UHGV virus genome: UHGV-1408657 | Direction: 5' to 3' (one strand) | From: a virus | Length of the DNA stretch: 25,963 bases | Shown here: positions 17,259 through 17,676 of the stretch, piece by piece | Numbering within the stretch: the first letter of the stretch is position 1 | Layout: the number at the start of each line of letters is the position of its first letter | Notes under the pieces: model-generated | Database searches by the model: none | Told to the model about the DNA's origin: nothing | Seen by the model: the letters and a program-made list of their open reading frames with translations, nothing else | Program-made: the position numbers and the translations under genes

Positions 17259-17676
17259 TTGCCAACGGGCTGGTGAATGCGGTTGAAATTTGAGCGCCAC
17301 ATTCAGAGGGCGCGAGATACTACAGCAATTTATGGTGCAATGCATTGTAAGCAGGGTCTGTTTTTGTGCAAAAAGTGCTATTTGTGCGCATTGGTACAGA
17401 TTGAAACGCATTGGAACGTATTGCAACTTTGCACGATCATGTTGTGATTCTGCAATCACCTTAGAGGTAATTTCGGTGAAACTGATTGCAACGTGCTTTA
17501 AGTGCTTCGGAAATGTCGTCGAACGTGCATCCATCTTCAGACATAGACCCATTGCTCAAATAAGAAGAATGGTATTAAATTGTCCTCAACCACTAAGAGT
17601 GGTCATGAATTCTTTGGATGTGTTTGCATCCTACAATTTGAGAAAGCACTGCCAAACGTGCATGAGGGTGATAATC

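Follow-up and report, generated by a model that had tools for sequence, protein, structure and literature searches.

In type II toxin-antitoxin operons, such as phd-doc of P1, the promoter/operator region has a sigma-70 promoter directly upstream of the antitoxin gene. Integrons have a 5' conserved segment, with the Pc promoter and attI, upstream of interchangeable cargo, and conserved boundary or linker sequences occur at the module junctions of lambdoid phages. The moron concept reportedly goes back to Hendrix and Juhala. HK97 gp15 is an example of a phage moron (PMC11364771). The mar/sox/rob box has the consensus AYnGCACnnWnnRYYAAAY (PMC3709825); at class II promoters it is in the forward orientation, overlaps the -35 element, and is centered ~41 bp upstream of the start (PMC10268841).

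The window, by which we mean the whole stretch of 25,963 nucleotides that was analyzed, is the late region of a lambdoid siphovirus. A sequence-only reading had treated 17263-17676 as one region upstream of the partner of Doc. Comparison with homologs redraws this span as a conserved element (17275-17581) followed by a cargo-specific 5' leader (17582-17676), with the antitoxin ATG at 17677. The two genes that come after the element encode a 59-aa antitoxin and a Doc/Fic toxin, and they are followed by two terminators and the tail genes M, L, K, and I. Judged from sequence and its conservation, 17263-17676 is probably a non-coding 5' control region that acts at the DNA level, together with the promoter, of a portable two-gene toxin-antitoxin moron cassette. 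The locus is laid out as follows.

13362-16493, tape-measure gene
16493-17190, ORF of 74 aa (PHROG 2891) and lipoprotein-like ORF of 147 aa (PHROG 2320), low in GC, between the tape-measure gene and the cassette
17234-17261, plus strand, intrinsic terminator of the lipoprotein moron (stem at 17234-17253, 8 pairs, then a T-run)
17275-17299, left edge of the element, beginning GAATGCGGTTGAAAT, placed by homolog comparison
17275-17581, conserved non-coding 5' element of the cassette, ~300 bp, delimited by BLAST, nhmmer, and alignments
17552-17581, plus strand, putative sigma-70 promoter of the antitoxin-doc operon (-35 TTGCTC at 17552-17557, 18-nt spacer, -10 TAAATT at 17576-17581)
17582-17676, plus strand, Doc-cargo-specific 5' leader, with palindromes and the Shine-Dalgarno sequence GAGGG (17664-17668)
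17589-17603 and 17616-17631, leader palindromes ACCACT-AAG-AGTGGT and GGATG-N6-CATCC
17677-17856, plus strand, antitoxin gene, 59 aa (PHROG 2208; residues 1-59 against a 59-position profile, E = 1e-37)
17867-18364, plus strand, Doc/Fic toxin gene (Pfam Fic; TIGR01550 DOC_P1, E = 8e-41; PHROG 577)
18367-18444, plus strand, cassette 3' end with two terminators, the second being ACCCGCTTCGGCGGGTTTTTTT, then GGAG and ATGGC

As in phage morons, the cassette is autonomous between conserved tail genes, with its own promoter and terminator and a deviant composition, its GC being lower than that of its neighbors. GC drops from ~0.54 in the tail genes to 0.40-0.46 over 16500-18400, a fall typical of morons, and is 0.42 in the repeat-rich region. 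The terminator at 17234-17261 lies outside the conserved element, and most loci with the cassette between the tape-measure gene and M have a like terminator upstream. Two arms, a 5' one of ~300 bp and a standard 3' one, recur with at least five cargos at four or more insertion sites, which sets the cassette apart from phage morons; the 3' arm restores a ribosome-binding site and ATG to the next tail gene, and K can take its stop codon from the 5' arm.

The element is conserved, as a mosaic, upstream of different cargos and at several insertion sites in lambdoid prophages. BLAST matched it to phage HK639, where it falls in an unannotated gap, and to Salmonella phage SW-37. A probe made of the 21-mer described below retrieved 48 IMG/VR contigs and two Citrobacter genomes with the element, while a second probe, from another block, added three loci (L057, L064, and L067); overall, ~50 IMG/VR contigs carry it, and an nhmmer match covers window positions 17279-17589 (E = 6e-77). 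Complete E. coli genomes and a plasmid collection gave no matches to the element, and a literature search turned up no description of it. At least five different two-gene cargos lie downstream: the antitoxin with Doc, a 190- to 202-aa protein with YafO, a SocA/Panacea antitoxin with an unknown toxin (in two versions), a 72-aa protein with a 280-aa membrane protein, and a 113-aa protein with a 241-aa protein. The genomic contexts number four or more and include the interval from the tape-measure/lipoprotein genes to M, as in the window and HK639, the interval between K and I, a nin-like early region upstream of a LexA-box dinI gene, and a position beside ArtAB-like toxin genes. In some Salmonella-type prophages (L012 and L038), pertussis-like ArtA/ArtB genes (Pfam Pertussis_S1) are situated 0.4 to 1.7 kb upstream of the element. 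Two close relatives of the window phage have only the left 80 nt (L058, 5339-5418; L063, 1120-1199), adjoining a minus-strand DUF4236 gene and then a terminator; such copies are either what is left of a cassette or a sign of a leftward promoter within the left arm.

The ends of the cassette are equally defined by comparison. At ~30 loci the standard 3' end consists of two terminators and then TTTTTTTATGGAGnAAATATGGC, which precedes M or I and gives that tail gene its ribosome-binding site, ATG, and second codon. Where the cassette sits between K and I (L008, L010, L015 to L017, L019, and others), the left edge of the element gives K its last codons and its stop (TAA or TGA), so that K ends in the cassette-derived ..A[LF]S[GE]CG before the stop. 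The new end of K lies ~80 nt upstream of the 21-mer motif (compare window positions 20280-20318). The C terminus of the window's own K, ..YLPQEIQPWRA before the stop, is absent from K in these loci, which indicates that the insertion replaced the end of the gene.

Long open frames on both strands had suggested to the sequence-only reading that part of this region might be coding, with a longer, zinc-ribbon-containing partner of Doc as one option. Both frames exist: a plus-strand ORF of 188 aa (17290-17856) runs in the frame of the antitoxin and its translation contains the CxxC pairs CFKC and CQTC, and a minus-strand ORF of 119 aa occupies 17193-17552. They had been called unexpected by chance. 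In 5,000 dinucleotide shuffles of 17290-17677, the antitoxin frame was open in 0.06% (p ~0.0006) and any of the six frames in 0.6%, whereas a minus-strand run of at least 88 codons appeared in 15%; for this single sequence, then, the plus frame is out of the ordinary but the minus frame is within expectation, and the claim holds for the former alone. An N-terminally extended, Cys-rich Doc partner (17290-17856) can thus point to 129 additional open codons and its two CxxC pairs. Against this stands the comparison of 19 unique loci with the same antitoxin-doc pair, in which only the window and its close relative L003 keep the antitoxin frame open over 128 to 130 codons before the ATG; L022 has 93 open codons. 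In 13 of the 19 the frame ends 37 codons before the ATG, and it extends over 25 codons in L038, 16 in L012, and 13 in L051. The 119-aa minus-strand ORF fares no better as a gene, as homologs have longest minus-strand frames of anywhere from 37 to 153 codons across the element and none is conserved. Indels among homologs have lengths that are not multiples of three. Neither Pfam nor PHROG has a match to the 129-aa extension, the 119-aa minus-strand ORF, or a 32-aa minus-strand ORF; the PHROG 2208 profile has 59 positions; and the Shine-Dalgarno sequence GAGGG lies 8 nt before the ATG at 17677.

The coding reading, to which we give next to no chance, is refuted by these data, and the longer zinc-ribbon partner falls with the closed frames, the missing profile matches, and the 59-position family profile. 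Both long open frames are chance features of this lineage. The antitoxin start is conserved across loci and, on the sequence evidence, can be fixed at 17677. A small minus-strand peptide, ...TFD[DE]..HFAS before a stop, seemed conserved, but its start codon is absent in many homologs, and the codon positions behave the wrong way for a gene, with second positions varying and third positions fixed. The sequence-only reading had also set a test in advance, by which stops in homologs with conservation confined to the repeats would speak for regulation and a conserved, uninterrupted frame for coding; homologs have the stops, conservation is confined to short blocks, and the outcome is on the regulatory side.

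A position-weight-matrix scan over 42 unique homologs found a single robustly conserved sigma-70 site, with a median and a lower quartile of 8.6 bits, above the 99.9th percentile of shuffles. In homologs it reads TTGCTC or TTGCTT, 18 nt (within the 16 to 18 nt expected of sigma-70 hexamers), and then TAAATT, TAAGAT, TAGAAT, or TAAAAT; despite these changes, the -10 element keeps TAnnnT in all 42 sequences. The window copy, with its 18-nt spacer and weak -10 (TAAATT), is not called by a strict consensus scan. Transcription would start near 17588. As the cargo types diverge in sequence at or just after the -10 element, 17582-17676 is a leader specific to Doc, and the palindromes at 17589-17603 and 17616-17631 probably serve as operators for the antitoxin or for its complex with the toxin, unless they form leader hairpins. 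The arrangement resembles that of type II toxin-antitoxin operons, with the promoter directly upstream of the antitoxin and Doc-specific palindromes around the predicted start. The conserved 275 bp further upstream, however, do not co-vary with cargo and so cannot be the operator of the cognate antitoxin. A 9-mer, AACGTGCAT, occurs twice 133 nt apart, at 17522-17530 in the island B8 (see below) and at 17655-17663 just before the antitoxin Shine-Dalgarno sequence; that the pair flanks the promoter could be chance.

Upstream of the promoter, conservation takes the form of a mosaic, with islands between variable segments. The features of this part in the window are given below.

17306-17329, island block 2, GAGGGCGCGAGATACTACAGCAAT, kept in the diverged L051 and in the truncated L058 and L063
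17338-17347, palindrome CAATGCATTG
17362-17382, minus strand, the 21-mer TTTTGTGCAAAAAGTGCTATT, with the core TGCAAAAAGTGCTAT
17387-17428, 10-bp-phased (C/G/T)ATTG(G/A/C) repeats (TRF period 10, 2.8 copies, 17400-17427)
17422-17470, three inverted repeats: TGCAA-CT-TTGCA (17422-17433), GTGATT-CTGC-AATCAC (17444-17459), and S3 (17456-17470), a 15-bp palindrome that reads TCACC-TTAGA-GGTAA
17516-17527, island B8, TCGTCGAACGTG, ~60 bp upstream of the putative transcription start

Every feature named by the sequence-only reading was recovered where it had been placed, including the palindrome CAATGCATTG, the recurring TTTGTGC and TTGCAAC motifs, and the direct repeat CGCATTGG at 17387 and 17407, which lies within the 10-bp-phased ATTG repeats. 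Its proposal of a regulatory region with operator-like sites gains support from the conserved non-coding sequence, the conserved promoter, and repeat-rich islands at fixed spacing. Further conserved islands are TTCTGCGAAA and TTAACTTGCAAAGTGG. The central ~85 nt exist in at least four unrelated variants (types A, B, C, and D), each rich in direct or inverted repeats, and the variant that a locus has showed no relation to its cargo type or genomic context. The 10-bp-phased repeats are confined to type A, while types A, B, and D share the S3 form TTACC-N5-GGTAA, replaced in type C by TCAAC-N5-GTTGA. The 21-mer core TGCAAAAAGTGCTAT is invariant also in homologs found with a different probe; as the 21-mer served as a search probe, its invariance is partly an ascertainment effect.

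Nucleotide diversity was computed among 22 Doc cassettes, with the third codon positions of doc (0.207) for comparison. At 0.038 and 0.054, respectively, the promoter and B8 are clearly constrained by this measure, and the leader has a value of 0.088. Block 2 (0.168) and S3 (0.195) are not clearly constrained within the Doc set, yet both persist in the very diverged homologs L051, L120, and L184, which retain only islands and spacing. Variable segments reach 0.33-0.37, and the element overall has a diversity of 0.229.

Spacing is remarkably constant. The distance from the 21-mer core to the -35 element is 184 to 185 nt in 42 unique sequences, although these comprise the unrelated central variants A and B, and 173 to 174 nt in five other sequences, of types C and D. 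The distances of B8 and S3 show the same 10- to 11-bp step between the two classes. Two spacing classes one helical turn apart favor a constraint at the DNA level, on the face of the helix, while the equal lengths of central variants could reflect descent rather than constraint.

The main rival to a control region is a neutral linker or relic, in which only the promoter-proximal ~70 bp are functional and the rest, everything upstream of B8, is a decayed divergent promoter region whose leftward gene was lost, persisting by hitchhiking with the cassette and as recombination homology. The overall diversity, at or above that of doc third positions, and the values in the variable segments agree with this, as do L058 and L063, which keep the left 80 nt alone beside a minus-strand DUF4236 gene. 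The 21-mer and block 2 contain weak but consistent minus-strand promoter-like sites (~5.5 bits), among them TTTGCA-17-TACAAT at 17372-17344, and a related motif is found at mosaic junctions and delimits portable promoters on their upstream side. Neutral decay does not readily account for promoter-distant islands that survive in the otherwise unalignable L051, L120, and L184, or for two spacing classes one helical turn apart across unrelated central variants, and we regard the relic as unlikely. Consistent minus-strand sigma-70 promoters, as candidates in their own right, were rejected, the sites being weak, at ~5.5 bits, at best.

Among DNA-binding motifs compared by eye, we know of none that fits in both sequence and spacing, whether for LexA, CRP, Fis, IHF, sigma-54, sigma-E, and DnaA or for NtrC, CytR, lambda CII, and the lambda operators. 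AATCACCTTAGAGGTAA (17454-17470) contains both half-sites of lambda OR1 (TATCACCGCCAGAGGTA) with a center 1 bp shorter, which we take to be probably a coincidence. A reading of the window 21-mer as a DnaA box was dropped, since it fails in the widespread variant of the motif.

An alternative at the RNA level, also raised by the sequence-only reading, is a non-coding RNA inside the element, either a small RNA that runs leftward from the 21-mer/block 2 as far as the U-rich left edge or a structured segment within the late mRNA. Inverted repeats are similarly placed in central types A and B despite their different sequences, and in many homologs the minus strand has a C-rich/G-rich hairpin followed by ATTTTAA, both of which would suit an RNA. 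Searches of the window and three homologs with Rfam, however, gave nothing near the gathering score over the element, and a tRNA/tmRNA search found none. RNAalifold yielded -5.1 kcal/mol on the plus strand, without compensatory support, and no pairs in the left part of the minus strand; energies from ribosum-scored alifold runs, which mostly reflected the scoring term, were set aside. Pairing of the three palindromes holds in 95% of cells within type B, yet changes on both sides are seen at just 2 of 14 pairs, which implies that palindrome conservation is mostly sequence conservation. The possible minus-strand hairpin before the U-rich tail folds no more stably than shuffled sequences and without preference for either strand (mean z, -0.65 versus -0.95), the wobble patterns of the two strands conflict, and terminator calling gave none at the minus-strand left edge. 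A minus-strand terminator at that edge was accordingly discarded as a candidate, its stability not exceeding that of shuffles. The earlier suggestion of a structured RNA thus lacks support from Rfam, global and local folding of both strands, and covariation; we consider an RNA inside the element improbable, and an RNA product from it possible but unsupported. A ToxI-like array, as in type III toxin-antitoxin systems, would have tandem repeats of ~30 to 40 nt, while the sole array found by TRF is 10 nt by 2.8 copies. An Rfam match to the cspA thermoregulator on a prophage contig (L017, 13372-13770, minus strand; 90.6 bits) is unrelated to the element.

The repeats could also be iterons, a centromere-like site of plasmid replication or partition, or a recombination site of the Xer or integron type. 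The 10-bp phasing suits such a role, as do the defined cassette ends and the occupation of several sites, and GTGCGCAT, present in type A only, resembles what we take to be part of a dif arm. Yet the phased repeats belong to the type A central variant alone, rep, par, and recombinase genes are absent in and beside the cassette, the plasmid collection returned no matches, and the cargo junctions are scattered, with no single fixed core site, which together make this reading very improbable. The likeness to an integron is one of layout: the element is a conserved 5' platform whose promoter would drive interchangeable cargo. Unlike an integron, the cassette has no integrase or attC-like site, there is one cassette per site, and the junctions are scattered. 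Lambdoid linkers offer another parallel, as flanks diverge exactly at the edge of a motif and the arms could direct homologous exchange, but such linkers are much shorter than the element, which also has islands inside it and a constraint on their spacing.

The 21-mer core belongs to a far commoner prophage motif, TTTGCAAAAAGTGCTAT, present in at least 120 IMG/VR loci, and the window 21-mer, read on the minus strand, is a 2-nt-insertion variant of the widespread marbox-like ATAGCACTTTTTGCAAAA. ATAGCACTTTTTGCAAAAC, the reverse complement of TTTGCAAAAAGTGCTAT, fits the mar/sox/rob consensus at all but one specified position. Across nine or more contexts whose spacers are unrelated, the 20-bp box is followed, at exactly 18 nt, by a -10-like hexamer, without a -35 element, and in these class II-like contexts a Shine-Dalgarno sequence and ATG come 25 to 40 nt further on. 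The ATAGCACTTTTTGCAAAAC loci look like a family of class II-type portable promoters, the likeness to known class II marbox promoters lying in a forward box 18 nt upstream of a -10 and centered ~41 bp upstream of the putative start. ATAGCACTTTTTGCAAAAC is found ahead of many unrelated accessory genes (L102, L103, L121, L128, L131, L136, L151, L173, and others). Similarity between flanks often stops precisely where the box ends on its outer side, as in L102 versus L103 and L133 versus L160.

The box of the window, ATAGCACTTTTTGCACAAAA, departs from this family. Its second recognition element is disrupted by 2 nt inserted between GCA and AAA, TACAAT follows after only 12 nt, and the cargo promoter is ~215 bp away; with the insertion and no -10 at the class II distance of 18 to 19 bp, the window box is not a class II promoter. 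Two homologs, L120 and L184, have a canonical box at the same place in the element. At 76 or more loci, a box in the reverse orientation lies ~51 bp upstream of the putative start of a LexA-box dinI promoter. In Gifsy-like prophages, for example L045 (3690-3790), the reverse box is just upstream of the -35 element of dinI (dinI-gfoA-like), and in L033, L039, and L045 the dinI-side box is a second copy, directly after the Doc cassette.

Taking the control region as our preferred reading, we propose that the promoter would give antitoxin-doc its own transcription in the lysogen, with no need of the late operon, which is silent there. The upstream ~275 bp would act as DNA, presenting putative protein-binding sites in helical register with the promoter. 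Candidates for such sites are the marbox-like 21-mer, the 15-bp palindrome, the TCGTCGAAC island, and the type-specific repeats, through which one or more trans-acting host or phage factors may tune the promoter. The shared arms would provide homology for cargo swapping by recombination. A bolder version, which we hold only tentatively and think doubtful as it stands, is a plug-and-play platform that wires many toxin-antitoxin and defense cargos of lambdoid prophages to one trans signal, with the arms as points of cargo exchange. That signal could be a Mar/Sox/Rob/RamA-type or phage-encoded factor acting at the TGCAAAAAGTGCTAT core.

For annotation, the antitoxin start is set at 17677 and two spurious ORFs are dropped. 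If the 5' arm is a real platform, unrelated toxin-antitoxin and defense modules of enterobacterial prophages would stand under one expression logic and would be exchanged as cassettes with defined ends. This would give a handle for finding new cargo genes through their flanks, for predicting the timing of cargo expression, and for testing how prophages reconcile toxic modules with their own tail operon.
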